Below, in pieces: positions 5,153 through 38,511 of a stretch of 64,000 nucleotides of DNA; position 1 is the first letter of the stretch; every line of letters starts with the position of its first letter. The translations under genes were made by a program, and so were the position numbers. Under the pieces are notes generated by a model that was not told the DNA's origin, did not search any database, and saw nothing but the letters and a program-made list of their open reading frames with translations. The DNA comes from Candidatus Kapaibacterium sp. (GTDB lineage: Bacteria; Bacteroidota; Ignavibacteria; Kapaibacteriales; HRBIN21): the NCBI GenBank assembly GCA_025059875.1, contig JANXCT010000003.1, forward strand, positions 4,176 through 68,175. Reading direction: 5' to 3'.

Positions 5153-7056
5153 TCCTCCGCTTGGGCAATGAAGCGCTCAATGACGGCCAACCCTTGGCGC
5201 CAGAAGGCCGGCTGTGTGACATCAATCCCGAACTGCTGGAGCAGAACCTCAGGAGCTTCCGAACCACCAGCAGCTAACAGCTCGCAGTAGCGCGGTAAGA
5301 ACGCCTCTCCCTTGCGCTGGTACTGCTCGTAGAGCGACAGGACTAGTAGCTCGCCGAAGGCATAGGCGTAGACGTAGCCGGGTGTATGGAGGAAATGCGG
5401 AATGTAGCTCCACCAGAGAGCGTAGTTCTGCGTCAGCTCCACGCTGCCTCGGAACATGGCCTGCTGTGTCTCCATCCAGTAGGCAGAGAACTCCTCGGTC
5501 GTCAGCTCCCCTTTCGTCGCACGCTGGCGGTGGATGGCATCCTCAAAGCGGTTCATCGCCACCTGCCGGAAGACCGTCGCCAGGAGGTCATCCAGCTTGC
5601 CCAGGAGCAGCGCCAATCGAGCCCGGCGGTCATCGGTCTGGCGCAGCAACCGCTGGAAGACGAGCATCTCTCCGAATGTTGAGGCCATCTCCGCCAGCGT
5701 CAGCGGCGCATGCGTCTGCAAGACGCTGTGCTGCCGCGAGAGGTACTGATGGATCCCATGCCCGAGCTCATGGGCAAGGGTCAGCACATCCCGAGTCGTA
5801 CCTGTGAAGTTGAGGAAGACATACGGGTGCACCGATGGCACCGTAGGAGCAGCGTAAGCCCCTCCTTGCTTGCCCGGGGTGACAGCAGCATGAATCCAGC
5901 CCTGCTCGAAGAAGCGGTCAACGATGCGGCCGAACTCTGGAGAGAAGTCCCAGTACGCCTGGCGGACAATCTGCGAGGCTTCGCGCCAGTGCCACCGATG
6001 TAATCCCACCGGCAGCGGTGCATAACGGTCCCACTCATAGAGCCGATCCAGCTGGAGGAGCCGACGCTTCAGCGTGTAATAGCGCTCCACCAGCTCGTAG
6101 CCCTCAACAACGGTGCGGATGAGTACCTCAACAGTAGAGTCGCTGACCTCATTCTCCAGGTTCCGCGGAGCTAACCAGTGGGGATAGCCGCGGAGTTGGA
6201 CGACCGTAGTGTGCCAGTCAGCCAGGAGCGTGTTGAAGATGAAGGTTAGGAGTCGAGCATTCGCACGCAGGCCTTCAGTGAAGGCTTCCGAAGCGCGACG
6301 CCGCAGCTCTCGGTCGGGATGGTGGAGGAGCGCCAGCAGCTCCTGCTGCTGGTATGGCTTGCCATCTAAGGTGTAGACGGCACCGCTGGTGAGCTCATCG
6401 AAGAGTCGAATCCAAGCAAAGCGGCTGGTTGTCTCCTTCAGTACCAGCACCTCCTCCGCTGCCTCCTCCAAGGTGTATGGCCGGAACTGGAGGGTATGGG
6501 CCAGCCAATGCCGCCAGCGTCGAATGCGAGGTGAGCTCAGGATACGCTGTTGGAAGTCCTCCGGAGCATGTATCCACTGCAGGGGCACGAACACCAGAGC
6601 GCGCTCTGCAATCGCGCTCTGCTCCCTAACTCGCTGCAAGAGAGCGCCAAGCTGTGGGTTCCCCGTGTCAGTCGACCACAGCAAGTACACGTAGCTATTG
6701 AGCCGAGAGCTCGTCTCCAGCAGGGCTTCATATTCGCGGAGCAGAGCCTCTACTTCCTCTTCGGTCGCTGTAGCGAATTTCCCACGCCAGCGTTGGGCAA
6801 AGGCTTCTGCCCGCTGCGGGAGTTCCTCGAGGTCAGAGCGGAACTCGCGGGAGTCAATTCCCGGATAGAGGTCTTTCAAGTCCCAAACGACGGTTTCGGC
6901 TCCAGAATCCCGGTTCTGCTCCCCCGTTATCGTCCCAGACTGGAGGCCTTCAGCTTTCAGAAGTGCTCGATAGTGCATTCTCGCACTGCTATGCTTATGG
7001 CACAATACGGTACAACATTCGCGGGAACGGAATCGTTTCCCGGATATGCTGGGCAC
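5137..7056 (-). CDS. pepF: Oligoendopeptidase F (M3 family)
   Basis: 'HELGHGIH' zinc motif and M3B peptidase architecture. The true start may be the Met at 6978, which would avoid overlap with asnS. Confidence 0.85.
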
Positions 7057-8429: not shown

Positions 8430-8437
8430 TAATTTTG
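8430..8437 (+). promoter_or_regulatory. Bacteroidetes-type -7 box (TAATTTTG) for the rpmE-rpsR operon
   Basis: Matches the TAnnTTTG consensus, 36 nt upstream of the ATG at 8473. It lies in the second arm of an inverted repeat whose first arm is the -7 box for the divergent asnS gene. Confidence 0.45.
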
Positions 8438-8921: not shown

Positions 8922-9158
8922 ATGGCTGTCACCGTTCGCAAACGCAAAGCTCGTCGGCGCCCCAATCCCTTAGGGCGTAGCCGTTACGTTGACTACCTGA
9001 ACATTGCTCTGCTTCAGAACTTCATCAACGAGGAAGGCAAAATCCTGCCTCGGCGTCTCACTGGAGTTACAGCGGTACAGCAACGCCGAATTGCGAAGGC
9101 GATCAAGTACGCGCGCCACCTCGCCCTCCTGCCGTTCGTTGGCTATGACCTGAAGTAG
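8922..9158 (+). CDS. rpsR: 30S ribosomal protein S18
   Basis: '[34 protein letters not shown]' is the S18 signature. Confidence 0.9.
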
Positions 9159-9281
9159 CGCCTCTCTACAATGGCGCTATCCTCCTCAGAAGAGGACTCT
9201 TTGCGCATCGCCGAGCAGAATCCATCGTACACAGTACGGCCCTCCAGGGAAACCCTGGAGGGCCACTTCCGTTTTAGCCAC

Positions 9282-12200
9282 TCACTGCCCGATGACCAGT
9301 CGCCTCGTCTCCGTGTACGGACCCGAACGCAGGCGGTAGAAGTAGATCCCTGGTGCAAGCTGCTCCACCGGCAGCGCGACTCTGTAGACTCCCGCCTCTA
9401 AGACCCCTTCCACAAGCGTCAGCACCCGCTGTCCCATCGCATCGTACACCACTAACTCCGTCGGAGCAGCCATCCCGATGGAGAACTCTACCTCTACCTG
9501 CCGCTGCCCACGAGCCAGCGGCTGCGGATGCACTTGTTGTAGGCTGTACCCCTGTGGACTCAGCCTCACTCGACGGAGGTCGTAGACGCATACTGGCACC
9601 ACCTGAAAGCTGCTGCCGGTTGCTGTAAAGATAACGCAAGCATTCCCTGGAGCTTCTACATTCAGCTTGATCTCGCTCTCCTTCGCCAGCGGAGCTAGAT
9701 ACGCCGTGAACAGCACCCGTACCAACTCCCCGGGTTGGCCGGTGAAGTATTCACCCTGCGGAGCCAGCAACCAGAAGCGGAGCTCCCCACCGGCTACCTG
9801 CACATTCTCCAGCCGCAGCCTTGCTGCAGCCGGGCCTAGCCGGATGCTTCCAGCTTCCGGGGCAATAACTGTGGGATCGAACGTCATCCGCACCCGAAGT
9901 GCCGTAATGGCTGCTCGCTGGATGTCATCGCCTGGCTGGACTTGCACCGGAACCCAGAACTGCGTCCCCGGTATCCCACTCCATGGACCGCCAGCGATCT
10001 GGAAGCTCCGCTGGAAGAAGAGTGCCTCTACCGATAGCCGGGCTCGCACCTCCGGTCGCTCCGAGCTGGTGTTTGCAATCACAAGCTCAACGTCGTAGTT
10101 ACCTGCCTGCGGTACCATATAGACTACAGGGATGTCCACCCCCGCCCCAGGCTGCAGCTCGAACGGTGTAGTAGGTGCTGCTGGACCGAGCTGGAAGGTT
10201 GCCCCTGGCGTAGCGTTCTCCAGACGTATCTCTGTAATCCGAATCGGAGCTGTTCCTGTATTCGCCAGACGCGCATTCAGAGTGCCCTCCGTCCCAGCAC
10301 AGACGGTCGTCCGTGCACCCGTCAAGGCCAACCCTTGGCTGATCCCATTCCCCAGCCAGACGCAGACGGCTTCCGCATTATTCTCGGCATCACTAACTAG
10401 TCGCAGCTCTGCTTGGACGGGCCCTGCCTGCTGAGCTACGAACTCACCCGTAAAGGTCACCCGCTCGCCAGGTTGCAGCACTCGAGGAAGGCCAAGGGCC
10501 GCCTTGTTGTATCGGAACCCGAGCGTTCCAAAGGTAGCCCCTGTCTCCCCTACACTCCCTGCTGGCACAGCCACGATATCCTCTATCCTCACAGCGTCTT
10601 GGAACTCCCACTCCAAGCATTCAATCGTCACCGTCCCTGTATTGGGTGTCGGAGCATTCACCAATGTCGTACCGAAGTCTACCTGTGGTGTCATCCGTAC
10701 CCGCGGCACAATCCCAATCCCTCGCAGGCTAACTGTCACCGGGACCCCGGTGGTGTTCTGCAAGGTTAGCTGCAGCTGGTAATAGCCCGTCGCTTGCGGG
10801 TCAAAGCGCACTGGCACGAGCCTTTCTTCACCCGGCTGGAGTGTCAACCCCACGAAGTCCCCACGGTCGTAGAGGAATCCCGTCGTTGGCCCCGAGGGCA
10901 CAGCATCTGTCACTGTCAGCTCCTGTGTCCCAACGTTGCGGATGAGCACCCCACTGCGCCCGTTATCATCGTACGGGCCACGTCCCACTCGGCGCCGTCC
11001 CCAGTCATATCCTTGTGCCCAAATCTCCGCCCTCACTCCCACACCCTGTAGCAGCGCCACGCTGTCCACCCGACTGGCATTGCTGCTGAACTCAATGGCG
11101 TCCGTGTACGACCGGACCTCTGAAGGAAGGAAATTGACCTGCAGAGTACGTACCTCACCGGGACGTAGCACCAGCGGATTGGTTGGCGAGATGGTCGGCC
11201 AGTTCACCAGACGGAAAACTCCTGGTTCCCTCGGGCCTCGATAGCCCGTGATGACCAAGTCCGTCCGACCTGTGTTGCGCACTTGAATCCATCCCGCAAC
11301 CTCTGTCTTTACGGGAACGGATCCGTAGTCGTAGTCGCTGACCTGAATCTCTGGCTCGTCCACCCGTGCCCTAAGTTCTGTCAGGTAGCGAAAGCTACAT
11401 TCATCTCCGATTCCTACTGAGTCCACAAAGCTGCCGACGGCTGTCGCTGTGAAGCGGATCTGGTACTCCACCTCCTCGCCCGGCCGCACCACTAATGGCA
11501 GCGTTGGCGGTGACACAAACGCAAAACCTCTGTTCCCGTCCTTCAGCCGTAGCTGCGTGATCCGCATCGGCTGGTAGCCAGCCACGTCTGGCACACTGAT
11601 CCGAACCGTTAGCATCCGGCTCTGCCCTATCTGCAGTAGTCCATAGTCGAGCAGTGCTGGCTCCATGCGCACTACAAACGGAGAATACTCCGCTGTAATG
11701 CAGGTGTCATTCCCCCGCCGATCGGAGAAGACCACTACCGCCCGTGCTGGCTGGAGTGGGTCCTGCACTTCGAGGCGCCACCGCACCGCTGCTGTAGTAC
11801 CCGGTATCAGCTGATCTAGCAGCGTCAGTGTGTAGTTGTAACTCCGCTCCGCATCCAAGCGTACCTCCGACAGGTTGCTGCGAATGGCTGCGTCCGTAGG
11901 ACGATCGCTCACGAACCCCTCCGCTGTCCCGTCGCATTGCTGCGTCCACGTCACTAGCGGTGGCAGCGTGTCAGCCGGGTCCAGCATCCTGCCGAATGCC
12001 ATCGTCGTTACAAAACCGTACGAGTCGTAGTCAGAGCCTCCGTAAGAGTATGCCATGAAGGGGAAGTTCCCACTCCGCGAGCGGATCTCAAAGACTCCGT
12101 TGTACGGCAGGCGCAGCAGCTTGAACGCCCACATCCGCCCGTTGACCCGAACTCGGAAGGGAATCCGTGTGGGGTCGAACTTAGAGCGAATCGGTGTCCA

Positions 12201-18371: not shown

Positions 18372-20228
18372 TCACTTCAGGCATGGCCGTTCGCTATCCA
18401 AGCAGAAATCACGCACGTGAATGACTGGCACACCAGCTTGCCGTTCCGTCCCGCCTCGCTCCTCTAGAGTGTAGAGGATACTCAGCGGTTGCCGCTCCCC
18501 CACAACATCGAGGTAGTGCACGCCATTCAATACGCCATCCATCCAGACCCCTTGCTGTTCCAAGCGGCAGCTATTGTCGGAACGGCAGCGGTGGAGGCGG
18601 ACGCGATGTGCCAGGAAGACTGGGCGGAAGTTCTCGTACCCGAACGGCGCCAAACGGCGAAGCAGCAGCAAAAACTGCGGCGTAATCTTGGCAAAGTCTA
18701 GCACGGCATCGACTCGGAGCTCGGGACGTTCAGCAGGCTGCAGCTCACTCTGACTAGCGAATCGCTCCACAGCTTCGCTGAAAGCCCCTACCTGGTCCTC
18801 CCGCAGAACGACACCGGCTGCAAACGGATGGCCACCGTAATCGCATGTATGGGCTGAACACGCCGCCAGCAGCTCCAGTAGGTTCACCGCTCCTCCACTT
18901 CGCGCCGAGCCCTTCACGAAGCCACCAACACGGCTCAGCAAGATGACCGGAACTTGGAAGCGTTCTGCGATCCGCGTAGCTACAATGCCCAGTACGCCAG
19001 GGTGCCATTGCGGGTTGTAAAGCACCACCGAACGGTATCCTTGGCGCGTCAGCAGCTCCTCAGCTTGCCCTATGGCCTCAGCATAGACCTGCTCAGCGAT
19101 TGTGCGGCGCCGGAAGTTCTCGCACTCCAGCTCCTGAGCGATCCGGAACGCAACACCTTCGTCCGTCTGGAGCAGCAGCTCCACAGCTCGGCGGGCATCC
19201 CCTAGCCGTCCGGCAGCGTTAATCCGCGGTGCTAGTGCTAGCAGGATGTCGGCCGTCGTGACGTTCTGCGAAGGCATCCCAACGCACTGCAAGAGCCCTA
19301 ATAGCCCCGGCCGAGGTTGGGTCCGGATTCGCTGTAACCCCAAAGCCGTCAGTACACGGTTCTCCTCCACAAGAGGAACGAGGTCTGCCACCGTTGCCAA
19401 TGCCACCAGGTCCAAATACTCAAACGCCTGCTCCGGCTCGCCCCACCGCTGTGCCGCTGCCCAAACGAGCTTGAAGACAACCCCGCAGGCAGCCAACAGT
19501 GGGAATGGGAAACCACTATCAGCGAGCCGGGGATTCAAGATGGCTGTAGCCTCTGGCAGAGGTCCGGTCGGTTCGTGATGGTCGCAAATGATGACATCCG
19601 CTCCTCTCTCGCGAGCATACGCAACTGCCTCCGCAGCGTTGATACCGGAATCCACGGCAACGATGAGCGTGGCCCCCGCATTGACTGCCCGCTCTACTCC
19701 TTCTACCGTCAGCCCGTAGCCCTCTTGGAACCGGTCAGGGACATGGTACCTCACCTGGAGGCCCCAGCGCGACAGAAAGTCTACTAGGACGGCAGTGCTG
19801 GCAGTGCCATCCACGTCGTAGTCCCCGTGAACCCAAACTAGTTCCTGCTCGTAACGTGCTCTCTCCAACCGAGCGACCGCTGCCTCCATATCATGGAAGA
19901 GCCACGGTGAATGGAGCTGTTCGGCCGAAGGATGGAGGAACCGTTGGGCGGCCTCAGGAGTCCGAATGCCACGAGCTGCGAGGATTGCCGCAATCCCCTT
20001 CGGCATTCCAGTGGCACGGGCTAGCGCTGCAATCTCTTCCTCTGTGGCCAAACCACGCCACGTCCAGCGGTATTTCACTGTTGCCCCTGCAGAGTGTGGG
20101 ACTGACCCGGACGCAAAGTTAGGAGCCGCAACGACGCCAGGAGAAACTGAGCTGCTTCGTTGCCTTTGCGCTGCAGCGTATCTTTGCGACAGCGAGGGGG
20201 AGCTTAGGACGTACAGCTCCGCAGACAT
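18372..20228 (-). CDS. recJ: Single-stranded-DNA-specific exonuclease RecJ
   Basis: DHH and DHHA1 domains ('VHGDYDVDGTAS', 'GGHPFAAG'). Confidence 0.9.
   Translation of the reverse strand: MSAELYVLSSPSLSQRYAAAQRQRSSSVSPGVVAAPNFASGSVPHSAGATVKYRWTWRGLATEEEIAALARATGMPKGIAAILAARGIRTPEAAQRFLHPSAEQLHSPWLFHDMEAAVARLERARYEQELVWVHGDYDVDGTASTAVLVDFLSRWGLQVRYHVPDRFQEGYGLTVEGVERAVNAGATLIVAVDSGINAAEAVAYARERGADVIICDHHEPTGPLPEATAILNPRLADSGFPFPLLAACGVVFKLVWAAAQRWGEPEQAFEYLDLVALATVADLVPLVEENRVLTALGLQRIRTQPRPGLLGLLQCVGMPSQNVTTADILLALAPRINAAGRLGDARRAVELLLQTDEGVAFRIAQELECENFRRRTIAEQVYAEAIGQAEELLTRQGYRSVVLYNPQWHPGVLGIVATRIAERFQVPVILLSRVGGFVKGSARSGGAVNLLELLAACSAHTCDYGGHPFAAGVVLREDQVGAFSEAVERFASQSELQPAERPELRVDAVLDFAKITPQFLLLLRRLAPFGYENFRPVFLAHRVRLHRCRSDNSCRLEQQGVWMDGVLNGVHYLDVVGERQPLSILYTLEERGGTERQAGVPVIHVRDFCLDSERPCLK
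20180..20187 (+). promoter_or_regulatory. -7 box TATCTTTG for the arginase-family/ABC operon, embedded in the recJ 5' coding region
   Basis: Matches TAnnTTTG, 40 nt upstream of the ATG at 20227. The surrounding 13-mer GCGTATCTTTGCG recurs at 31050. Confidence 0.4.
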
Positions 20229-26715: not shown

Positions 26716-27739
26716 GCTCCTGCTGCGGGTAGACGACCTGCGGGTCCACTTCCCCGTCTACGGTGGCGTGCTCCAGCGCATCGTCGGCTGGCTTCCCGCC
26801 GTCGATGGAGTGAGCTTCTCCATCCACCGTGGTGAGACGTTGGGGCTCGTTGGAGAGTCCGGCTCGGGGAAGACCACCGTCGGGCGGGCTATCGTGGGGA
26901 TTATTCCCTTCTCCTCCCCTGATGCCCGCATCAGCGGCCATGCGTGGCTCCACCCATCGGGAGAACTAGAGCCGGTAGACCTCCTCCAGCTCTTCTCCCG
27001 TCACCGCCGCAACGGCTACCCACAGCGGCTTCGGCTCCGCTACCGACGCCACGTCCAGATGGTGTTCCAGGACCCCTTCTCCTCGCTCAATCCTCGGCTG
27101 TCGGTTGGGCAGATTGTGGCCGAGCCTTTGGAGGTTCACTTCCCCGAGCTGTCGCGGGCCGAAATCCAGGAGAAAGTTGTCTGGCTGCTGGAGAAGGTAG
27201 GGCTGCAGCCCGAAGACCGCATGCGGTACCCCCACGAATTCTCCGGCGGCCAGCGCCAGCGCATTGGCCTGGCCCGAGCCCTCGCCACGCGTCCGGACCT
27301 GGTCATCTGCGATGAGCCGGTCTCCGCACTGGACGTCTCCATCCAGGCGCAGGTCATCAACCTCATGGAGGACCTGCAGGAGGAGTTTGGGATGGCCTAC
27401 CTCTTCATCGCGCACGACCTCTCGGTGGTGCACCACATCAGCGACCGCATCGCCGTCATGTACCTGGGGCACATCGTGGAGATCGGCTCCGCCGACACGA
27501 TCTACTTCAGCCCTCGGCATCCGTACACGAAAGCGCTCATCTCCGCTGTCCCCATTGCTGACCCACGACAGAAGCGGGAGCGCATCGTCCTCCGAGGCGA
27601 AATCCCCTCGCTGCTCCGCAAGCCACCCGGCTGTCCCTTCCACCCCCGCTGCCCAATTGCCCAGCTAGAGTGCACGCAGCAGATGCCTGCGCTAGAGGAG
27701 AAGGAGCCCGGCCACTGGGTGGCGTGCCCGTACGCTTAG
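26708..27739 (+). CDS. ABC transporter ATP-binding protein (OppF-like)
   Basis: Walker A 'GESGSGKT' and 'FSGGQRQRIGLARAL'. The start was placed at the internal Met '[10 protein letters not shown]', overlapping the upstream stop. Confidence 0.9.
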   Translation: MSELLLRVDDLRVHFPVYGGVLQRIVGWLPAVDGVSFSIHRGETLGLVGESGSGKTTVGRAIVGIIPFSSPDARISGHAWLHPSGELEPVDLLQLFSRHRRNGYPQRLRLRYRRHVQMVFQDPFSSLNPRLSVGQIVAEPLEVHFPELSRAEIQEKVVWLLEKVGLQPEDRMRYPHEFSGGQRQRIGLARALATRPDLVICDEPVSALDVSIQAQVINLMEDLQEEFGMAYLFIAHDLSVVHHISDRIAVMYLGHIVEIGSADTIYFSPRHPYTKALISAVPIADPRQKRERIVLRGEIPSLLRKPPGCPFHPRCPIAQLECTQQMPALEEKEPGHWVACPYA

Positions 27740-28335
27740 CGGTAGAAGCGACTGAAGGCCGCAGCCACAAGCTGTCGATAGCGCCACGCGTAGACGGCAA
27801 GAGTCCAGAGTGCCAGGAGTGTTACCACCAGGAAGAAGCCCCAGACGCCATCGCTAGTCAGCATCCGCTCGGCGAACTCAGCATGAGGCTGCCGACCGTC
27901 CCGCCAGAGGGCAACCAAGAAGACTACGACAACGAGCCCTCCTAGTTGCACGAAGGTCTTGGCCTGCGCTGCCGGTAGCGTCCGCAGCAGCTCTCCCTGC
28001 TGGATGGCATGCCAGCGCAAAAGCGTCGTAGTGATGTCCCGCGCCACCAAGATGGCCACCATCCACGCTGGCGCAATCCCCAGCCAGCCCAGCGGCAACA
28101 GGACCGAGAGTGCCAGTACCTTGTCCGCCAGCGGGTCCAGGAATGCTCCTTCAGGAGTGCTCTGCGCGTATCGACGAGCAATCCAGCCGTCAACCCCGTC
28201 AGTGAGAGCTGCAATGGCAAACAGAAAGGCTCCCAGCCACACCACCCACGCCTGCTCCACCCCCAGACATACCCCCACAAACGGCGCCAGCACCAGGCGC
28301 GTCAACGTCAGTATGTTGGGGATGTTCAGCACCAT
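27736..28335 (-). CDS. pgsA: CDP-diacylglycerol--glycerol-3-phosphate 3-phosphatidyltransferase
   Basis: 'PNILTLTRLVLAPF' followed by 'DGVDGWIARR...DPLADKVL', the CDP-alcohol phosphatidyltransferase motif. Confidence 0.85.
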   Translation of the reverse strand: MVLNIPNILTLTRLVLAPFVGVCLGVEQAWVVWLGAFLFAIAALTDGVDGWIARRYAQSTPEGAFLDPLADKVLALSVLLPLGWLGIAPAWMVAILVARDITTTLLRWHAIQQGELLRTLPAAQAKTFVQLGGLVVVVFLVALWRDGRQPHAEFAERMLTSDGVWGFFLVVTLLALWTLAVYAWRYRQLVAAAFSRFYR

Positions 28336-29093
28336 GCCCGCCGAATCGCCGAGCGGACGATTGCACAGAACTCCTCAGCTCGCAGCGATGCTGTACCCAC
28401 CAGAACCCCAGCAACTTCGGGAATGCCGAGGATGGACTCCGCGTTGCCGGCGTGGACGCTGCCTCCGTAGAGGATAGGGACCTCCGACGGAAGGCCCTGC
28501 TGCAGTAAGGAGCGGCGCACCACTGCATGGGCTTCGGCAATCTGCTCCGGTGTCGCCGCAACCCCTGTCCCGATGGCCCACACGGGCTCGTAGGCCACCA
28601 GGAGTCCTGTCCACATCGTCGCTGGTACACGTCCCAAGACGCCGCTGAGCTGGCGTTCGATAACGGCTGCCGTCTGCCCCGAACGCCGCTCCTCTAGTGT
28701 CTCGCCGATGCAGAGGATGGGCCGCATGCCGAACTCTACTACCCGCTGTAGCTTACGGGCAAGCTGCGCGTCGCTCTCACAGGCGTAGCGGCGCCGCTCC
28801 GAGTGCCCTACGAGCACAAGCTGGCATCCCAGTTCCGCCAGCATACGAGCCGAAACCTCCCCTGTGTAAGCTCCCTCCACCTCTTCGTGGCAGTTCTGTG
28901 CCCCCCAGAGGACTGGGCTCCCTTGGAGGGCTCGAGACACCGCCTCTAGGTTCGGAAATGGCGGGCAGACGGCTACCCGTACTCGGGGGCAGCGCTCGAG
29001 CTCGTTGGCAAGCTCCCCGCGCAGACGCAGTGCCAAGCAGTGGGCCTCCGACGGTGTTGTGTGCATCTTCCAGTTCCCCACCACCCACCTCAT
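28326..29093 (-). CDS. tpiA: Triosephosphate isomerase
   Basis: 'WVVGNWKMH', 'VGHSERR' and 'AYEPVWAIGTG'. The start is at the internal Met 'MRWVVGNWKMH'; the track ORF over-extends upstream. Confidence 0.9.
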   Translation of the reverse strand: MRWVVGNWKMHTTPSEAHCLALRLRGELANELERCPRVRVAVCPPFPNLEAVSRALQGSPVLWGAQNCHEEVEGAYTGEVSARMLAELGCQLVLVGHSERRRYACESDAQLARKLQRVVEFGMRPILCIGETLEERRSGQTAAVIERQLSGVLGRVPATMWTGLLVAYEPVWAIGTGVAATPEQIAEAHAVVRRSLLQQGLPSEVPILYGGSVHAGNAESILGIPEVAGVLVGTASLRAEEFCAIVRSAIRRAWC

Positions 29094-29620
29094 TGGCGGC
29101 GCCCACGCACGCGGAAGACCCGGTACGTCTGGAGATCGTGGCTCGCCTCGAATCCAACGCCCTCGATGACCTCCCTCGGCGTTATGATAGTGACCGGTGC
29201 TGAGGAGAAGAACTGCTGCCGCTGGCGGTCCCACCACAGCTCCGTCGTCTGCAGGCTCCGCCCCTCCGGATGCGAGCGGGCAACGACCCGACCGAAAGCG
29301 GCCATGAGTCCAGAGCGCTCCTCCACACGGGCACTATCGGCCGAGAGTTCACCGACGAGCTCCCCAGAACGGAAGAAGCGGGCTTGGACGTGCCCACGCA
29401 GCACCGTCTGGTCCCGCTCCGGCAGCACCCATGCCGTGTCGGCCGTGACCTCAGCGCGTGGAGTGCCTGCCGAGTCCAGGAGCCGAACCCACACCTTGAC
29501 GGCAAGCTGTGGTGGTAGTGCCTGCAGCGACTCCTCCGGGAAGAGCTCCCCCTCCGGACGCACGCCCCCGGGGGAGCAGGAGAGCAGGAGCAATCCCATC
29601 ACGACACCCCAACCCCGCAC
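29090..29620 (-). CDS. LptC/OstA-like periplasmic lipoprotein (putative LPS-export component)
   Basis: Lipobox 'LLLSCS'. A 176-aa beta-jellyroll-like segment 'VTIITPREVIEGVGFEASHDLQTYRVFRV'. The gene is co-oriented with kdsA. Confidence 0.45.
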   Translation of the reverse strand: MRGWGVVMGLLLLSCSPGGVRPEGELFPEESLQALPPQLAVKVWVRLLDSAGTPRAEVTADTAWVLPERDQTVLRGHVQARFFRSGELVGELSADSARVEERSGLMAAFGRVVARSHPEGRSLQTTELWWDRQRQQFFSSAPVTIITPREVIEGVGFEASHDLQTYRVFRVRGRRQ

Positions 29621-30396
29621 CGCTGGGCCGCCTGCCAGAGTTCCACCACCTCCTGCAGGAATCCCTCCACCATCGCCAGCGGGAGCTGAGTCTCCGGGTC
29701 GCTCAGCGCTTGCGTCGGGTCTGGATGGGTCTCGAAGAAGATGCCGTCCACTCCGACGGTGACGGCAGCCCGAGCCAGAGCCCGAACGAACTCCCGGCGC
29801 CCGCCAGAACGCTCCCCAACATTGGGCTGCTGAACCGAATGGGTGGCATCGTAGAGCACCGGACAGCCAGTCTGCCGCAGAATCAGCAGTGAGCGGAAGT
29901 CCACCACCAGGTCACGGTAGCCAAACATCGTCCCCCGCTCGGTCAACCACACCTCGCTACCGCCCCCCAGACGGACCTTCTCCACCGCGTACGCCATGCT
30001 TTCCGGGGCCATGAACTGGCCCTTCTTCACGTTCACCGGCTTGCCCGTAGCGCCGGCGGCCATGAGGAGGTCCGTCTGGCGGCAGAGAAAGGCCGGAATC
30101 TGCAGGATGTCCACATACTGCGCCGCCAGACCTGCCTCCGCCGGCGTGTGAACATCTGTTAGCACGGGAATGCCATACGTACTGCGAATCTCGGCCAGGA
30201 ACTCCAAGGCTCGTTCGTCTCCTATGCCGGTGAAGGAGTGGGCACTCGTGCGGTTTGCTTTGCGGTAGGACGCTTTGAAGACCAGCCGCACGGGCAACTC
30301 AGCGCAGACGCGGCAGAGGTAGTCGGCGACGGTGTGGAGCAGCTCTCGGGATTCCACAACGCAAGGTCCGGCAACAATGAGCAACGCCTTCTCCAT
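29599..30396 (-). CDS. kdsA: 3-deoxy-8-phosphooctulonate (KDO8P) synthase
   Basis: 'MEKALLIVAGPCVVESRELL...VFKASYRKANRTS' aligns with KdsA N-termini. The start was chosen at MEK. Confidence 0.9.
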   Translation of the reverse strand: MEKALLIVAGPCVVESRELLHTVADYLCRVCAELPVRLVFKASYRKANRTSAHSFTGIGDERALEFLAEIRSTYGIPVLTDVHTPAEAGLAAQYVDILQIPAFLCRQTDLLMAAGATGKPVNVKKGQFMAPESMAYAVEKVRLGGGSEVWLTERGTMFGYRDLVVDFRSLLILRQTGCPVLYDATHSVQQPNVGERSGGRREFVRALARAAVTVGVDGIFFETHPDPTQALSDPETQLPLAMVEGFLQEVVELWQAAQRCGVGVS

Positions 30397-31021
30397 GGCC
30401 AGCGGCAAAATTAGGCAAGCTCTCTTGCTCCTTCTGCTTGCGGGAAGCGTCGCTGCAGCCACCACTCCGCGGGACTCCCTACTCCGGCTGAACTCTGGCG
30501 GGCCTCGCTGGATCAGCGGTGAGGAGCTGCTCATGGCGCTCTACGGCTACGTGCTCACCCCTGTGTGGCTGGCTTTCGGGACGGCCTCGCTCGTCTCTCC
30601 GACTGTGCTTCTGGATGCATCGCGCCAGCAGTGGGGCTGGTCCATAGGGACCGGGGTTGGATGGAGTCCGGAGTCCACCGCTCAGCGCTTCTCGCTCCTC
30701 CGCCTCCAGGTAGATTACGAACGGCTGGGAGCCGCCCAGTTCAGCACGACGCTCCTGGCTGATTGGAACGCTGTGCCCATCTTTCTGCCCGAGCTCTTCC
30801 GCCTGGGAGGCAGCTTGGGGCTGGGCCAGAGCTGGCGTGCACCCGAACGCCGCCCGTACCTGCAGGCTGAGGCCTGGCTCCGGAACGCGATGGGGATTTG
30901 GTACATGGGCCTCTTCCCCCAGCACTCGCTGGGGCTGCGCCTGCGCTATTTCCCCGCCGTGTCTGCGCTACCCGCACGCTGGCAGCTCGCCCTCGGCTGG
31001 TGGGCTACCTTCGTGTGGTGA
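30377..31021 (+). CDS. Putative outer-membrane beta-barrel protein (hypothetical)
   Basis: Signal peptide 'KIRQALLLLLLAGSVAAA', alternating amphipathic strands, and a C-terminal aromatic 'ATFVW'. The exact start is uncertain (Met at 30377 or 30395). Confidence 0.45.
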   Translation: MSNAFSMASGKIRQALLLLLLAGSVAAATTPRDSLLRLNSGGPRWISGEELLMALYGYVLTPVWLAFGTASLVSPTVLLDASRQQWGWSIGTGVGWSPESTAQRFSLLRLQVDYERLGAAQFSTTLLADWNAVPIFLPELFRLGGSLGLGQSWRAPERRPYLQAEAWLRNAMGIWYMGLFPQHSLGLRLRYFPAVSALPARWQLALGWWATFVW

Positions 31022-31052
31022 AGCACCCCGCAACCCGCCGCTAGCCCTGGCG

Positions 31053-31060
31053 TATCTTTG
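31053..31060 (+). promoter_or_regulatory. -7 box TATCTTTG upstream of the RM gene
   Basis: Matches TAnnTTTG, 26 nt upstream of the ATG at 31087. Confidence 0.4.
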
Positions 31061-31086
31061 CGCTGCGTGCACCCTGCGCAGCCCCG

Positions 31087-34000
31087 ATGACCCCATTTGA
31101 CCAAGCACTATCCGACTACCTCAGCCGACTGGAGCAGCTACGCCACCAGGGAGCCAGCGAAGACAGCATCCGCCACGTGTTCCTGCACTTCCTGCAGACC
31201 GCCTTCCCGGAGCTCTCGGCCGCCCGGCCCATCCAGGTGGAGCAGCACGTGCCGGGCCTCTCCGTCCGCGGAGGCTTCGCCGACGCCATCTGCGGCGACC
31301 TCATCTTTGAGTTCAAGCGGAAGCTCGACGACCAGACCCGCTCCGATGGCCAGCAGCAGCTCCAGCGCTACCTGGCCGCACAGCCGCAGCCTGAGCACTG
31401 CGTCGGCATCCTCACTGACGGCCAGACCCTGGAGGTCTACGTCCTGCGGGACGGATAGCTCCAGGAGCTGGACCAGTTCCGACTCGACGCCGGCCGAGCC
31501 GATGAGTGCCGGCTGTGGCTGGATTGCTACCTCTTCCACGAGAAGCAGCTCCGTCCGACGGCCCGGGACATCGCCCTACGCTTCGGGGAGCGGAGCCCGA
31601 CCTTCCAGGGGAGCCTGCAGTTGCTAGACAAGGCATGGCAACGGCTCAAAGCGGATCCATCGGCGCAGACGGAGTACACCCAGTGGCAGAGCCTGCTCTC
31701 CATCGTCTACGGCAGCCCCATAGGCACCGAGCAGCTCTTCCTGCGCCACACGTACCTGGCCCTCTTCGCCCGCCTGCTGGCCTTCGTGGTGCTCCAACGC
31801 AGGGTCCCGCAGGATAGCGAGCTTGCGGGGCTACTCACCGGGCAGACGTTCGAGCAGCTCGGCCTCTACAACTTCGTCGCCGACGACTTCTTCTCCTGGA
31901 TTGACGACGCAACCGCCTCTCCCCTGCTCCGCTCCCTGGCAACCCGCCTGACGACCTCCTACGACCTCTCCGCCATCCGCGAGGACCTCCTGCAGGAGCT
32001 CTACCAGGAGCTCGTGGACCCGGCCACTCGGCATGACCTCGGGGAGTACTACACGCCCGACTGGCTTGCCGAGCTGACGCTGCGCGAAGCGGGCATCCTG
32101 CAGGCCCTTCCGTTCCAACCTCCCGACGACCGGCTCTTCCTGCTGGACCCCGCCTGCGGCTCCGGGACCTTCCTCTTCGTGGCCATCCGGCTGCTGCGGG
32201 AGTCGGGGCTCTGCGGAGCTGAGCTGGTGGACTTCTGCGTGCACTTCCTGGCGGGGATTGACGTCCACCCGCTGGCAGTTGCAATTGCCCGCACCAACTT
32301 CGTCCTGGCGCTGAGCCAGGATTTGAGGGAGTACAGCAGGGACCTGCACGTGCCCGTCTACATAGCCGACAGCCTCACCGTCTCCCACCGCCGCCAGCGC
32401 GTCATCTCCGTCCCTGTTGACGTCGACGACATCGCGCAGCTCTCCGGCAAGTGCGGGGAGTCCCTACCGAGGGAGTTCTCGCTGCCGGCCACGCTGAGCG
32501 AAGACCAGCTCAACGCTGCCATTGACGCCCTGCTGGGGTTTGCCGAGCCTTCCATCACCGACGTAGATGCGCAGCAGGGCTTCCACTCCCGGCTCCTCCA
32601 GCTCGGACTCCCACGTGGACAGTACTACCTGTGGCATGCAAACCTGCGCCTCATGCGCTGGCTCCTGGCCTCGCCCCCGACGGACACGGTCTGGGGCTTC
32701 GTGCTGAAGAACGCGTACCGCCCCAAGCTACTCGCCGCTCGGAAGTCCGCCCTCGTCGTGGGGAATCCGCCGTGGTTGGCCTACCGCTACATCCAGCGGC
32801 GCGACTACCAAGACAAGGTGCGCAGGCTGACCCTGCAGGACTACGGCCTGCTGCAGGGCTCCCAGGCCCACCTCTTCACCCAGATGGAGCTGGCGACGCT
32901 CTTCTTCGCCTTCTGCGCCGACCGCTACCTCGCCGACGGCGGCACCATCGCGTTCGTCATGCCCCGGAGCGTCCTGACCGGCACCAAGCAGCACGACGTC
33001 TTCCGCCAGCGGTTCGTAGCCACAGCGGCGCTCATCGTAGACTGCGAGCGGGTCAGCCCGCTCTTCAACGTCCCCTGCTGCGTGCTCGTATGGCGGAAGC
33101 ACTCCTCCGGAGCCCACGCACAGGGCATCCCTCTGCTGGTCCTGGAGGGCAAGCTGCCGGAGCGTAACGCACCGCTGCAGAGGGCGTTACGCATACTCCG
33201 GCGGTGGCAGGGATCCTACACCCTTCCCAGCACCGCTACGGCGAAGAGCTTCTACCACCCAAAGGTTACCCCGGGTGCTACAATAGTGCCCCGCTGCCTC
33301 TGGTTCGTACGCCCCCGGGCCGAAGCACTCGTCATCAGCCAGCAACGGCCACCGTTGGAGACCGACCCTACCGTAGAACCTCGGACCAAGCCGCCGTGGA
33401 AGGGCCGGCGGCTGCAGGGGAGGGTAGAGGCGGACTTCCTCTACGCAACGCTCCTCTCCGACGACATGCTGCCCTTCGGCTGGCGCCGCCTGGCGCTCGT
33501 CGTGCTCCCCATAGACGCCACCACCCGCCACCTCATCACTGCCCAGCAGGCCATCACGATGGGGGCAACGGGACTAGCCGACTGGCTGAAGCAGGCAGAG
33601 TCCATCTGGAACCGGCACAGGAAGTCACAGCTCGATCTGCTGGGCCGCCTCAATTGGCAGAACGACCTTACCGACCAGAGCCCTACGGGCGTGTACAAGC
33701 TGCTCTACAACACCAGCGGGACGTACCTCTGCGCATGCGTCGTGGACCCCAGCGATGCGAGCGTCCAGCAGGTCCATGGCCTGCCGGTGAAGGGCTTCTT
33801 CGGGCAGTACACGACCTATTTGTTTGAGACGCTCGATGGCGACGAGGCACATTACCTCTGCGCCATCCTCAACGCTCCGTGCGTGGACGCAGCCATCAAG
33901 CCGTTCCAGCCAAGAGGTGCCTTCGGTGCCCAGAGCGGGAAAGGAACTCCTTCCCATCCCGCGCTTCAACCCACAGGACCCGCTGCACGTGCAGCTAGCG

Positions 34001-34165
34001 GAGCTCAGCCGGCAGTGCCACGCGAAGGTGAAGCAGAGCGTTGCTGCGATGGACCAGGCGTTGCTGAAGCAGCCCATTGGCCGGCTGCGCCAGCGGATTC
34101 GGCAGCAGTTGCAGACCGAGCTGGAGCAGATTGACCACCTGGTGCAGCTCTTGGGGTTGCCGTAG
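31087..34165 (+). pseudogene. MmeI-family type IIG restriction-modification enzyme (N-terminal PD-ExK nuclease, gamma-class N6-adenine methyltransferase, then a target-recognition domain), disrupted by an in-frame TAG and a C-terminal frameshift
   Basis: The N-terminal 'RGGFADAICGDLIFEFKRK' aligns with the MmeI D-x9-E-x-K nuclease motif. Methyltransferase motifs are 'GEYYTP', 'LLDPACGSGTFL' (motif I) and 'VVGNPPW' (motif IV). Both segments are in frame 1 and are separated only by the TAG at 31456-31458. The true C-terminus '...KELLPIPRFNPQDPLHVQLAELSRQCH...LLGLP*' lies in the +1 frame from about 33938 and ends at 34165. Confidence 0.75.
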
Positions 34166-34264
34166 CGGAGTGGCTGCGCACTCGCCATCGGACGCACCTC
34201 GTATTTTCGCCCGCGGGACTTCGGCCGTACGTCCAACACTCCGCGGAGGCTTGCTCGAGTTCCG

Positions 34265-35566
34265 ATGTGTGCCCTCCTCGTACTGCTCTCCACGTTCTGC
34301 TGTGCGGCCCAGCAACTGATATGGCTGGGGCGGCTCCCCAACGGGGGCACGAGCGAGGCAATGGCTGTCTCCGACGACGGCACGGTCGTGGTCGGCCGAG
34401 CCGAGAACGTGAACTACCAGTGGCGGGCCTTCCGCTGGACGGCCTCGGGCGGGATGGTGTCGTTGGGGACCTTCGGGGGGAGCTTCAGCGAGGCATTGGG
34501 CGTGGCGGCGGATGGCTCTGCCGTCGTCGGCCGGGCCCAGGACACGCTCGGACGCTGGCGGGCCTTCCGCTGGGAGGCCTCCACGGGGATGCGTGACTTG
34601 GGGACGCTCGGCGGACGGGAGAGCGAGGCGGTAGCCATCTCGCCAGCAGGGGTTGTCGTCGGACGGGCTATGAACGGGAGCCTGCAGTTCCGTGCCTTCC
34701 GCTGGAGTACTACCTCCGGCATGCAGGAGCTGGGCACCCTCGGCGGGCTGGAGAGCGCAGCGCTGGCAATTGCCCGCGATAGCTTGGTGGTCGTCGGTTG
34801 GGCCGAGAACACTGACCGGCAACCGCGGGCCTTCCGCTGGACACCCTCCGGCGGGCTCCAGCCGCTCGGCACCCTCGGTGGAGCCCGTAGCGAAGCCTAC
34901 GATGTCTCTGCCGACGGCTCTGTCGTTGTGGGACGGGCCGAGAACAGCGACCGCCTCTGGCGGGCCTTTCGCTGGACGGCAGCAACCGGGATGCAGGAGC
35001 TGGGAACCCTAGGTGGTCGGGAGAGCGCTGCGCTGGCCGTCTCCGCCGATGGTTCCGTCGTGGTGGGCTGGGCTACCACCCCAACCGGAGACTGGCGGGC
35101 CTTCCGCTGGACATCGGCCACAGGGCTCCAAGACCTCAATGTGCTCTACGCGCGCGCCGTCGGACGCTCGCTGTTGTATGCAGCCCGTGACATCTCCGCC
35201 GACGGGCGGTACATCGTCGGCTACGGCATCAACGCCGCCACAGGGCGGCAAGAGGCCTATCTGCTGGACACCCAAGGCGCGAGCGATGCCGAGGAGTTAC
35301 CCCTCCGCCCGTCAGCGCTCAACGTGGAGCTGCAGCCGGTGGTTGGAGGGACGATAGGCTCCGCCTCGTACCAGCTACCTTCGGCTCTGTGGGTCTCGCT
35401 CAGCGTCGTGGACCTCCTCGGCCGCACTGTGGCATCGCTCGCCGAAGGTTGGCATTCTGCCGGCGTACACCGCGTCGCGCTCCCTCCGCTGCCAGCAGGG
35501 ACGTACATGCTACTCCTCCGCACAGAGCATGGGACACTCTCGCGCCCGTTCGTCGTACTGCGCTGA
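34265..35566 (+). CDS. HAF-repeat protein with a T9SS C-terminal sorting domain
   Basis: Six to seven tandem HAF units of about 43 aa ('RAFRWT..GM.DLGTLGG.ES.A.AVSADGSVVVG'). Signal peptide 'MCALLVLLSTFCCAAQQ'. C-terminal 'LSVVDLLGRTVASLAEG...GTYMLLLRTEHGTLSRPFVVLR'. Confidence 0.85.
   Translation: MCALLVLLSTFCCAAQQLIWLGRLPNGGTSEAMAVSDDGTVVVGRAENVNYQWRAFRWTASGGMVSLGTFGGSFSEALGVAADGSAVVGRAQDTLGRWRAFRWEASTGMRDLGTLGGRESEAVAISPAGVVVGRAMNGSLQFRAFRWSTTSGMQELGTLGGLESAALAIARDSLVVVGWAENTDRQPRAFRWTPSGGLQPLGTLGGARSEAYDVSADGSVVVGRAENSDRLWRAFRWTAATGMQELGTLGGRESAALAVSADGSVVVGWATTPTGDWRAFRWTSATGLQDLNVLYARAVGRSLLYAARDISADGRYIVGYGINAATGRQEAYLLDTQGASDAEELPLRPSALNVELQPVVGGTIGSASYQLPSALWVSLSVVDLLGRTVASLAEGWHSAGVHRVALPPLPAGTYMLLLRTEHGTLSRPFVVLR
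34340..35240 (+). repeat. Tandem DNA repeats of about 130 bp encoding the HAF units
   Basis: The periodicity is visible as recurring 'gccttccgctgga...ggcaccctcggcgg...' blocks. Spurious repeat-derived ORFs appear in several frames across this stretch. Confidence 0.7.
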
Positions 35567-35594
35567 GTCCACATAGCCTACGGGCTTTCCCCCA

Positions 35595-37775
35595 CTACGG
35601 GCTCTCCCCCACACGCCATCGGACGCCGACGTAGACCAGCCGTGCCTCCAGCGGTCCCCAGACCAAGGAGGCATCGAAGTAGGGCCCACGCGGATTCCCT
35701 GGGTCCACGACAGCCGAGTGTTGTAGGGCATTCGTCAGGTTCTCCACCCCAACGTAGAGGTCCCAGACTCCGAAGCGGCGCGTCACTTGCCCATTGACTC
35801 GGAAGACTGCGGGGAAGCGCTCTCCCCAGCGGAGGCTATCGGGATTGCCCGTCGCCGTCGGTAGCCGACCACCGCTGTTCCAGACGAGCGTTGCATCCAC
35901 CTGCCACTGGTGGCCTGCAATGGCATAGCTCACCGTTGCCAGCACCCGGTGGGGCGAGACCAAGGGACGGCGCCGCCACTGCCCGCCCGTCTGCGCCCAG
36001 GTATCCCACCAGCGGTAGGCCAGCCGGAGCTCGACTCCGGCCACCCTCCCCTCTGCCTGCAGCAGGAGCGAGTTCGCGTAAGCCTGACCAGCATTCTGCA
36101 GCAGCAGTCGGCGCGGGCTCCAGTCCAAGTCCGGCACCACTTGGTTCCGGAACTCCGTCCGGTATGCCTCTAAGTCCAGCGTCCACAGCCCTCCGACGGG
36201 CAACAGTAGGGTCAGCGAGCCGCCGTAGTTCCAGCCCCACTCCGGCGAGAGAGGCCCGAAGGTAACCTGGCGGGAGCTCAGGAAGAAGGGTAGGTTGTCC
36301 GCCACGACGTTCGGCACACGCATCCCTCGACCGCCAGAGAGGCGCACCGTTACGCCAGTCCAAGGCTGCCACTTGAGATAGGCCCGTGGTGTTAGGAATG
36401 CCCCGTACTGGCTATGCCAATCTGCCCGGAGCCCGGCCACTACCGTGAGGCCGGAACGGAGATAGAGCGTCGCCTCCAAGAAAGCCCCAGGAACGAGCTC
36501 GCGTCGGTTCCACGCCGTATCAGCGAACCGCTCATCGTAGGAGTCCACCAGCAAGTTTGCTCCGTAGCGTAGGCACGTCCCGTCCTCCCACTCGCTGACG
36601 AAGAGTGCGGCGAACGTTCCCATGGACTGCGTGCCCTTGTACGGATAGCGCCCCAGTGTCGCCCGCACCTGCTGCCCCACCAGCGCCGTCCGCACCCCGA
36701 ACTGAGTGATGTCGGAGAGCCTCTGGGTGCTCTTGCCCACAAGCTCACCTCGACGCCCGAGGATGTGGAGCAGATACGACCGCTCTGGGACTGCCGTCCG
36801 GAGCGTACCGCCATGGCGCTCATCCACCACGGCTTTCGCAAAGACCTGGAGCTCGGGCTCCTCCGAGTGCAATAGCCACACCATACCCCCGAGCTGCCGC
36901 GCCAAGGGCATGTCAATGAAGCCATCGCGGTTGACATCCCGCTCCCACCCTGACCATCGGCCGTTGAGGAAGCCCATACCCTGCCACGAACGAGATATTG
37001 TCCGGGTTGAGGCTAGATTTAGCTCAAGCCTTCCAGCAGAGCTGGCGAATAGGTTGGCGAAGAGCGGGGGGCTATCGTACGGCTTGCGGTAGTCGACGCA
37101 GACCGTTCCGGTAAGCCCCTCGTAGCCATCTGCAACAGACGTCGCTCCCTTGGAGATGGCAATCCCCTGCAGGAATGGCCCCGGGATGTACTCCCACTGG
37201 AACGGGAGCGAAAGCCCACGGAAGAGCGGCACCGCCTCCACGAGCGTCTGCACGTACACCCCGCTCAGGCCCAGCATCTGAATCTGCCGCAGCCCCGTCA
37301 GCGGGTCGGAGAAGGTGGCCTCCACCGTCGGGCTCTTCTCGAAGGATTCTGCCAGTGTACAGCAGGCAGACTGCTCCAATTGCTGAATGCTGATGAGCTC
37401 CGTCTTCACCGGTGCTGGAGCAATCGTCGGGGCTGCAGCCTCAACCGCGACTTCCCCGACCTCGTAGTCCGCTCTCAACACGATGACCAGCGGCCCCGTC
37501 ACCCCGGCAGGCAGGACGGTATCCCGGCTGCGGTACCCAACGGAGCTCACCCGCAGGGTGTCCACGCCATCCGGGCGCGGGAGGCGGAAGTGACCGTCGG
37601 AGTGCGTCAACACCCCAATCTCGCTCCTTACCCACTGCACGCGGGCTCCAGGCAGTGGGCAGCGGGTTCCATCGGGCTCTTCGCCGTAGACGATCCCTTC
37701 AACGTACGGCTGCGCCACCGCCGATAGCACAGCAAGCATAGCAGACCAGATGCCCACAACCATGAGGGCAAGCAT
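35595..37775 (-). CDS. TonB-dependent outer-membrane receptor (N-terminal carboxypeptidase-regulatory-like domain, plug and barrel)
   Basis: Signal peptide, 'VEGIVYGEE...GARVQWV' CarbopepD_reg-like domain, plug domain, and a 22-strand barrel ending in an aromatic residue. Confidence 0.85.
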   Translation of the reverse strand: MLALMVVGIWSAMLAVLSAVAQPYVEGIVYGEEPDGTRCPLPGARVQWVRSEIGVLTHSDGHFRLPRPDGVDTLRVSSVGYRSRDTVLPAGVTGPLVIVLRADYEVGEVAVEAAAPTIAPAPVKTELISIQQLEQSACCTLAESFEKSPTVEATFSDPLTGLRQIQMLGLSGVYVQTLVEAVPLFRGLSLPFQWEYIPGPFLQGIAISKGATSVADGYEGLTGTVCVDYRKPYDSPPLFANLFASSAGRLELNLASTRTISRSWQGMGFLNGRWSGWERDVNRDGFIDMPLARQLGGMVWLLHSEEPELQVFAKAVVDERHGGTLRTAVPERSYLLHILGRRGELVGKSTQRLSDITQFGVRTALVGQQVRATLGRYPYKGTQSMGTFAALFVSEWEDGTCLRYGANLLVDSYDERFADTAWNRRELVPGAFLEATLYLRSGLTVVAGLRADWHSQYGAFLTPRAYLKWQPWTGVTVRLSGGRGMRVPNVVADNLPFFLSSRQVTFGPLSPEWGWNYGGSLTLLLPVGGLWTLDLEAYRTEFRNQVVPDLDWSPRRLLLQNAGQAYANSLLLQAEGRVAGVELRLAYRWWDTWAQTGGQWRRRPLVSPHRVLATVSYAIAGHQWQVDATLVWNSGGRLPTATGNPDSLRWGERFPAVFRVNGQVTRRFGVWDLYVGVENLTNALQHSAVVDPGNPRGPYFDASLVWGPLEARLVYVGVRWRVGESP

Positions 37776-38487: not shown

Positions 38488-38511
38488 CGGGTTTGTATTT
38501 TTGCTGACCGG
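38488..38511 (+). promoter_or_regulatory. -7 box TATTTTTG followed directly by the palindrome CTGACCGGCTGGTCAG
   Basis: Matches TAnnTTTG at 38488-38495. The 16-nt palindrome at 38496-38511 overlaps the predicted transcription start (TSS), upstream of the PNPOx-MenA fusion gene. Confidence 0.4.

Follow-up and report, generated by a model that had tools for sequence, protein, structure and literature searches.

A probable recently inactivated pseudogene of a solitary restriction–modification enzyme in a Candidatus Kapaibacterium genome

When a gene that once joined a nuclease and a DNA methyltransferase in one chain is found broken, is it simply decaying, or has the break begun to turn it into a stand-alone methyltransferase? 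The question arises at positions 31087-34165 (plus strand) of a 64,000-nt stretch of Candidatus Kapaibacterium sp. DNA (contig JANXCT010000003.1 of assembly GCA_025059875.1, positions 4,176 to 68,175), here called the window, where an initial annotation had described a decaying, or possibly domesticated, type IIG restriction–modification (R-M) gene. These coordinates hold the remnant of one gene of ~1035 codons, which combined a PD-(D/E)xK nuclease, a gamma-class N6-adenine methyltransferase (MTase) and a target-recognition domain (TRD). Our analysis agrees with the first half of that description: with a probability of roughly 0.8, a solitary single-chain R-M gene, a gene of phage defence, was inactivated here recently and is now a pseudogene. 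Reuse as a stand-alone methylase is not supported, and residual methylase activity is unlikely.

The layout of the remnant can be followed from its intact start to its displaced end. In frame 1, an ATG at 31087 opens a reading frame (ORF) of 123 aa (31087-31458) that ends at a TAG (31456-58), and beyond this stop the same frame remains open until 34134. The N-terminal fragment (123 codons, 31087..31455, plus strand, as are all parts of the gene) contains the nuclease core, with the motif GFADAICGDLIFEFK at 31273-31317 and the spacing D66-X8-E75-X-K77 (D66 at 31282-84, E75 at 31309-11 and K77 at 31315-17). In a family alignment of 41 sequences the D and E are invariant and the K is at least 90% conserved, and the three residues are predicted to be catalytic. 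An AlphaFold2 model of an intact homologue (P0003; predicted local distance difference test score 79.5), which served as our structure query for Foldseek searches, has an alpha/beta core at residues 76-141 that corresponds to the nuclease domain. The stop is followed by 54 in-frame codons (31459..31620) that are homologous to the family and contain no ATG, GTG or TTG; their amino acid identity to the syntenic gene of a sister metagenome-assembled genome (MAG), contig JBCNUX010000031 of GCA_039630485.1 (hereafter L001), is 96%.

Downstream of these codons, the homologous part (31621..33945) of an annotated 837-aa ORF with a TTG start encodes the rest of the helical spacer, the MTase and the TRD. 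Motifs X (LGEYYTPDW, 32038-64), I (LLDPACGSGTF, 32140-72) and IV (NPPW in VVGNPPWLAY, within 32755-84) follow one another in gamma-class order across 32038-32784 and are intact, as had been annotated. For this middle piece the Pfam models N6_Mtase (4e-11, 43 bits), MmeI_Mtase (32 bits, cut-off 27) and Eco57I (25.4 bits) all score above their cut-offs, and the PADLOC model REase_MTase_IIG (PDLC03630) matches at 2.3e-64. The TRD, the beta-rich region that follows the MTase (665-930 of the family model), is covered by Foldseek alignments to CamA, DrdV and MmeI that extend over 780-1150 columns. The remaining 62 codons and stop of the 837-aa ORF (33946..34134) are out of frame and without family homology. 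Its product, P0001, is identical to an 837-aa protein in NCBI named 'N-6 DNA methylase [Candidatus Kapabacteria bacterium]' and ends '...GKGTPSHPALQPTGPAARAAS...RAGAD', matching the end of no homologue. The conserved C-terminal helical region persists in frame 2, cut off from the rest, as 73 codons plus TAG (33944..34165). This remnant ends in IDHLVQLLGLP before the terminator at 34163-65, aligns with positions 1025-1081 of PDLC03630 (1.6e-5) and corresponds to helices 988-1046 of the P0003 model. The ORFs, motifs and Pfam and PADLOC matches thus confirm a single-chain nuclease–methyltransferase–TRD gene, and they also confirm that it is broken twice: the single uninterrupted ORF of a type IIG gene is interrupted by the TAG at 31456 and by a 29-nt deletion with a frameshift at 33944/45.

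The first lesion (31456..31458), annotated from the outset as an in-frame TAG after the nuclease domain, can be assigned by comparison with L001. Where that contig reads gga CAG ctc (Gln124), the window reads gga TAG ctc, a single C-to-T transition at 31456, and Q is also the residue in the partial protein of the relative (P0002). The TAG interrupts the conserved nuclease/spacer region. We rejected codon reassignment or read-through of TAG because the gene itself terminates with TAG, which is therefore an ordinary stop in this genome.

The second lesion (junction 33944..33945) was defined by aligning the window with 109 full-length homologues, and it is a true deletion plus frame shift rather than a one-base slip. 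All 24 of the 24 homologues displayed read G-K-G-ERxIHRRPF-E-V-L-P-I-P, whereas in the window GAFGAQSGKG is directly followed by ELLPIPRF. Homology to other members runs in frame 1 as far as 33945 and resumes in frame 2 at 33944, so that 29 nt (27 + 2) are missing relative to the family, which amounts to the nine codons of ERxIHRRPF and a change of frame. The R, R, P and F of this motif occur in at least 95% of the 109 homologues, and these four columns are lost in the window. Shortly after the deletion come the C-terminal helices (988-1046 in the P0003 model), and the shift of frame leaves the last 73 codons, and these helices with them, untranslatable. The frameshift that had been annotated in a conserved C-terminal helix is thus correct as a change of frame, but not as a simple frameshift. 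Nor would the correction of supposed sequencing errors restore an intact 1025-aa ORF, as had been suggested, since nine conserved codons are absent.

If the locus is a pseudogene, its history probably ran as follows. The product of the ancestral gene would have consisted, from the N-terminus on, of a PD-(D/E)xK nuclease, a helical spacer, the gamma-class N6-adenine MTase, the TRD and a C-terminal helical region. If it worked as the solved type IIG/IIL enzymes do, this single chain would have read an asymmetric site, methylated an adenine and cut unmodified DNA at a distance. The gene would have entered the gap between a hypothetical gene of 229 aa and a HAF-repeat gene in a common ancestor with the sister MAG. 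The C-to-T nonsense change at codon 124 would then end translation right after the nuclease core and, because nuclease and methylase share one chain, would abolish both at once, leaving no restriction to kill an unmethylated cell; all activity would presumably be lost. The net 29-nt deletion would remove ERxIHRRPF and put the last 73 codons out of frame. Both lesions would be irreversible, and either could have come first. The inactivation would be young, since decay has spared the promoter motif and the greater part of the coding sequence.

Several observations weigh against this account. Decay is slight, with all catalytic motifs intact and only two disabling lesions in 3.1 kb. Relative to L001, the ratio of nonsynonymous to synonymous substitution rates (dN/dS) is 0.42 for the whole gene (0.48 before the TAG and 0.44 after 31621), compared with 0.03-0.18 for four flanking genes. 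This difference speaks against residual function, but a ratio of 0.42 could also be usual in defence genes whose recognition domain evolves fast. A relative-rate test of relaxed constraint (51 derived replacements in the window vs 26 in L001, p=0.006) was rejected as gene-specific evidence; ten flanking genes, polarized with a more distant Bacteroidota MAG (L003), give 42 vs 28 (Fisher p=0.49), and the excess of replacements is thus not specific to the gene. The promoter motif is conserved, and the remnant may still be transcribed. Finally, L001 ends ~250 nt (~83 codons) before the deletion site, so that the deletion cannot be assigned specifically to this genome; a closer relative that retains the C-terminus was sought in JGI metagenome contigs, where the best match was only 64% identical, and the deletion is undatable. 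Comparisons at conserved columns, on the other hand, speak against residual function. At columns that are at least 70% conserved, nine window-derived replacements (seven of them after 31621) compare with none in L001, which is suggestive, and at columns that are at least 95% conserved the window deviates at 8 of 198 (four in the deletion), compared with a median of 2 in intact members.

Could a nuclease-less methyltransferase nevertheless be made? The initial annotation had raised domestication in progress, in which initiation at 31621 yields a protein without nuclease that still methylates DNA, so that a type IIG enzyme gives rise to an orphan methyltransferase. We consider this improbable, even though motifs X, I and IV are intact, the promoter motif is kept and NCBI annotates the 837-aa ORF as a protein. 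Structural considerations also lend it something: the TTG (window residue 179) would correspond in the model to about residue 188 of P0003, in a spacer helix (180-196) just after the nuclease domain, so that the truncation would be roughly domain-wise, and the solitary methyltransferase CamA is the best structural match of the MTase and TRD part, so that stand-alone enzymes with such an architecture exist. However, the codon at 31621, initially read as an in-frame Met, is TTG. It is the sole in-frame ATG, GTG or TTG between the TAG and 31700 (~240 nt) and lies 162 nt beyond the stop, which makes translational coupling implausible; there is no ATG before aa 523, the first in-frame one (32653) being past motifs X and I. 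A product from 31621 would lack ERxIHRRPF and the conserved 73-residue C-terminus, which bears invariant R, P, F, L, L, R and R positions, and would end in 62 unrelated residues. The complete, translatable ORF with all family-conserved parts that characterizes an orphan methyltransferase is not present, given the TTG start and the lost C-terminus. Constraint after 31621 seems no stronger than before it, with 42 window-derived replacements in 690 codons after and 9 in 178 before, and with the dN/dS of 0.44 given above. The suggestion of domestication is thus not upheld. More doubtful still is the fuller version of this scenario, in which transcription from the retained promoter and initiation at the TTG give a nuclease-less, C-terminally altered protein that still methylates an asymmetric site.

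A similarly improbable explanation, slightly behind domestication in our assessment, is that the lesions are artefacts or minority alleles of metagenome assembly and that the type IIG gene of the organism is in fact intact and active. Since the sequence is that of a MAG, its consensus may have been called from a mixed population; the sister MAG shows no break at the first lesion, and the rest of the gene appears unspoiled. Against this, the Logan assembly of SRR15826900 (L002, 9401 nt) is 100% identical to window positions 27340-36740, both lesions included, so that two assemblers agree over 9.4 kb, although possibly from the same reads. No homopolymer or repeat was found at either lesion, and a clean C-to-T substitution and a 29-nt deletion are atypical error types; for these reasons assembly error is unlikely as their source. 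Two independent lesions in one gene, with the ORFs of its neighbors uninterrupted on a coarse look, would be an odd error pattern, and the rest of the window is tiled by long ORFs with no hint of poor sequence, again on a coarse look rather than a systematic pseudogene scan. Phase variation was rejected, since neither lesion lies in a repeat tract. The phase-variable or frameshifted type IIG genes of Campylobacter and Helicobacter are likewise single-chain R-M genes held in an 'off' state by reading-frame lesions. Those genes switch reversibly at homopolymer tracts, whereas a point nonsense change and a 29-nt deletion outside any repeat would make the lesions in the window irreversible.

The least probable proposal, a split system in which the 123-aa nuclease and the downstream methyltransferase/TRD fragments are made separately and cooperate, or in which the TAG is read through, can point to an N-terminal ORF that keeps its promoter, ATG and D/E/K residues and to the general existence of multi-subunit relatives of fused R-M enzymes, but the stop lies within the conserved nuclease/spacer region, the next 54 homologous codons have no start codon, TAG is the normal terminator of this gene too, none of the ~100 full-length homologues listed is split in this way, and the C-terminal deletion applies regardless.

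How the gene came to this position can be partly reconstructed from its relatives. L001 is syntenic with the window (tpiA-lptC-kdsA-hypothetical-RM, 93.8% nucleotide identity over 12.6 kb), and its RM ORF runs for 871 uninterrupted codons to the contig end; the partial product P0002, assigned to a Chlorobiota MAG, was found to be 91% identical to the window protein, whose conceptually repaired form was the query of our protein search. L003 has the whole neighborhood in common with the window (kdsA is 85% identical in its best segment), and in it the homologues of the 229-aa gene and the HAF gene (hyp229 and HAF433) lie 132 nt apart without an RM gene between them. Because the two flanking genes are adjacent there, the RM gene was probably gained at this site in a common ancestor of the window genome and L001 and then inactivated in the lineage of the window, as far as sequence comparison can tell; the alternative is that L003 lost it. 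Between these genes the DNA of L003 has diverged beyond alignment and gives neither exact insertion boundaries nor a target-site duplication. No flanking direct or inverted repeats beyond chance and no traces of a mobile element were seen, and foreign base composition was not found, the gene having the same GC content (65-67%) as its flanks. As a separate observation, synonymous divergence (dS) from L001 is 0.11 for the RM gene (31087-33692), 0.22 for tpiA, lptC and kdsA and 0.145 for the 229-aa gene (compared region 28326-31021). The RM gene thus has a lower dS despite a similar overall nucleotide identity, for which codon composition or a later recombination tract are possible causes.

The neighbors of the remnant are tpiA, lptC, kdsA, the hypothetical gene, the HAF-repeat gene and a gene for a TonB-dependent receptor, and the matches of the flanking genes agree with the annotated picture of a lone gene among housekeeping genes. 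The identities first given to the flanks hold for kdsA (DAHP_synth_1, 7e-63) and for the HAF-repeat gene (34265-35566; TIGR02913, 2.5e-58, six repeats). The type IX secretion system tail of the HAF protein is sub-threshold (18.8 bits, cut-off 23), and the outer membrane protein gene was not recovered, the 229-aa neighbor having matched no Pfam or NCBIfam family. As longest ORFs, kdsA (311 aa, 29599-30534, minus strand) and the 229-aa gene (30332-31021, plus strand) are divergent and overlap by ~200 nt; in gene calls made elsewhere on the same DNA, kdsA has 288 or 265 aa and the hypothetical gene 162 or 217 aa, and the true starts are uncertain. Within the HAF-repeat gene, direct DNA repeats of 80-105 nt occur at 34352-34993 with a spacing of ~135 nt and 68-73% identity, as expected from the protein repeats.

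Upstream of the remnant, the sequence TATCTTTG (31053..31060, plus strand, 27 nt upstream of the ATG) is a Bacteroidota-type -7 promoter-like motif of the form TAnnTTTG. The canonical motif that had been annotated is thus present, and the syntenic locus in L001 keeps it as TATTTTTG; by its sequence, it probably acts as a promoter. TAnnTTTG occurs 18 times in the window, compared with 6.9 expected from shuffles, and none of 100 shuffles reaches 18 (examples are 8430-8437, 20179-20186, 31053-31060 and 38496-38503). Such an excess would be expected if this Kapabacteria-like genome uses -7 promoters of the Bacteroidota type. In the NCBI taxonomy, 'Candidatus Kapaibacteriota' is a synonym under taxid 976, the taxid of Bacteroidota. 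The HAF gene of the window is preceded by TATTTTCG (34202-34209), one mismatch away from TAnnTTTG; in L003, which has no RM gene, the corresponding position before the HAF gene (around 8950-8990, minus strand) carries a perfect TATTTTTG. It seems that the RM gene has its own promoter motif, given that L003 keeps a perfect one before the HAF gene, and that the motif of the HAF gene in the window is slightly degraded.

Which enzymes, then, did the intact gene resemble? The protein search recovered ~100 intact full-length homologues of 1005-1215 aa and 43-64% identity from many phyla, with hosts among Armatimonadota, Gemmatales, Fervidibacter, Dehalococcoidia, Bacteroidia and others, and at the two intact-homologue loci that we inspected the gene is likewise alone among housekeeping genes. 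At one of them, in a Dehalococcoidia MAG (GCA_025060295.1, L112), a 297-aa N6_N4_Mtase gene (5076-5969) lies on the same strand as the type IIG gene and stops 32 nt upstream of it. As in Eco57I-type systems, some members may thus act together with a separate methyltransferase; such a gene is absent from the window and from two Gemmatales loci (L110 and L111). In both of these Gemmatales MAGs, 2.3 kb without a called gene (9108-11448) lie directly downstream of the intact homologue.

The family had been annotated as MmeI-like, and this stands for the superfamily architecture and the MTase core, but not for strict membership. The Pfam model MmeI_Mtase (PF20473) scores 32.0 bits in the window and 40.1 bits in P0003 (cut-off 27), though over only the first ~90 of its 259 profile positions, while MmeI_hel, MmeI_TRD and MmeI_C gave no match at E<=0.1 in the window pieces or in the intact homologues P0003 and P0103. 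MmeI_N (PF20464) is sub-threshold for the N-terminal piece of the window (16.4-17.9 bits, cut-off 27) and weak in the family, where 14 of 22 N-domains match at E<=0.1 (best 2e-6). When the N-domain profile was run against PDB in order to verify the alignment of the nuclease triad with D70/E80/K82 of MmeI, it found no chain at E<0.05, MmeI included; that alignment, first offered as a feature of the gene, thus comes down to the sub-threshold MmeI_N match of 16.4 bits against 27. The spacing from D to E is 8 residues in the window and would be 9 in MmeI by the figures of the initial annotation. We conclude that this is a distinct, uncharacterized type IIG family with an MmeI/DrdV-like architecture at the superfamily level, outside the strict MmeI family.

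Comparison with solved structures is in line with this placement. MmeI (type IIL/IIG; PDB 5HR4) and DrdV (PDB 7LO5) have the same single-chain order of nuclease, spacer, MTase, TRD and C-terminal region, and Foldseek aligns the family model over most of its length, about equally well, with DrdV (4.8e-14, 1147 alignment columns), BrxX/PglX (~1e-13), MmeI (1.7e-13, 963 columns) and BpuSI (3e-13), at 11-14% identity throughout and only ~11-13% for MmeI and DrdV. Unlike these two, the family has its own invariant C-terminal motif, ERxIHRRPFE, and the gene copy in the window is broken. A profile of 41 family sequences run against PDB matches CamA (2e-6), type I M subunits (~3e-6), DrdV (6e-6), BsaXI (1.5e-5) and MmeI (5e-4), in motifs X/I and IV only; the match to MmeI 5HR4 covers ~110 positions and is confined to motifs X and I. 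The best curated match is PDLC03630 'REase_MTase_IIG', a PADLOC/REBASE-derived model of ~1100 positions, with 1.5e-84 for P0003 and the 2.3e-64 given above for the middle piece of the window. Only positions ~240-700 and the extreme C-terminus of this model align; the nuclease domain and TRD do not, and it therefore represents a related family rather than the same one.

For the MTase and TRD part the best Foldseek match is CamA, the solitary adenine methyltransferase of Clostridioides difficile (PDB 7LT5 among others; E=6e-16, TM-score 0.66-0.70 normalized to CamA, 11-13% identity). CamA is an intact, conserved gene that has neither a nuclease domain nor a helical spacer, and the ORF in the window, unlike CamA, lacks both a conserved C-terminal part and an ATG start. 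A related gamma-class MTase and TRD fold also occurs in PglX/BrxX of the bacteriophage exclusion (BREX) system (PDB 8C45 and 9EWZ), with weak NCBIfam and PADLOC PglX matches. PglX has no N-terminal PD-(D/E)xK nuclease. The NCBIfam PglX model scores 35.3 bits on the window against a cut-off of 400, the MAD2 models are also far below their cut-offs, and there are no brx genes among the neighbors in the window; membership in BREX or a type I system was rejected on these scores and the gene context.

Genomes acquire and lose R-M genes quickly, and type IIG genes with frameshifts are common. The locus offers a series of three states, in which the site is empty in one genome, occupied by an apparently intact gene in another and by a freshly broken one in a third. 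It shows how fast solitary R-M genes come and go in housekeeping regions, a pattern that is already well known, and the importance of the finding beyond annotation is little. For annotation itself, the public 'N-6 DNA methylase' record of 837 aa would more aptly be labelled a fragment of a pseudogene whose intact form encoded a type IIG enzyme of ~1035 aa. The family from which it comes has many, widely distributed members, most of them in MAGs, and no curated model covers its full length; the sensible target in a search for a new specificity would be an intact member of this family, and not the broken copy found here.

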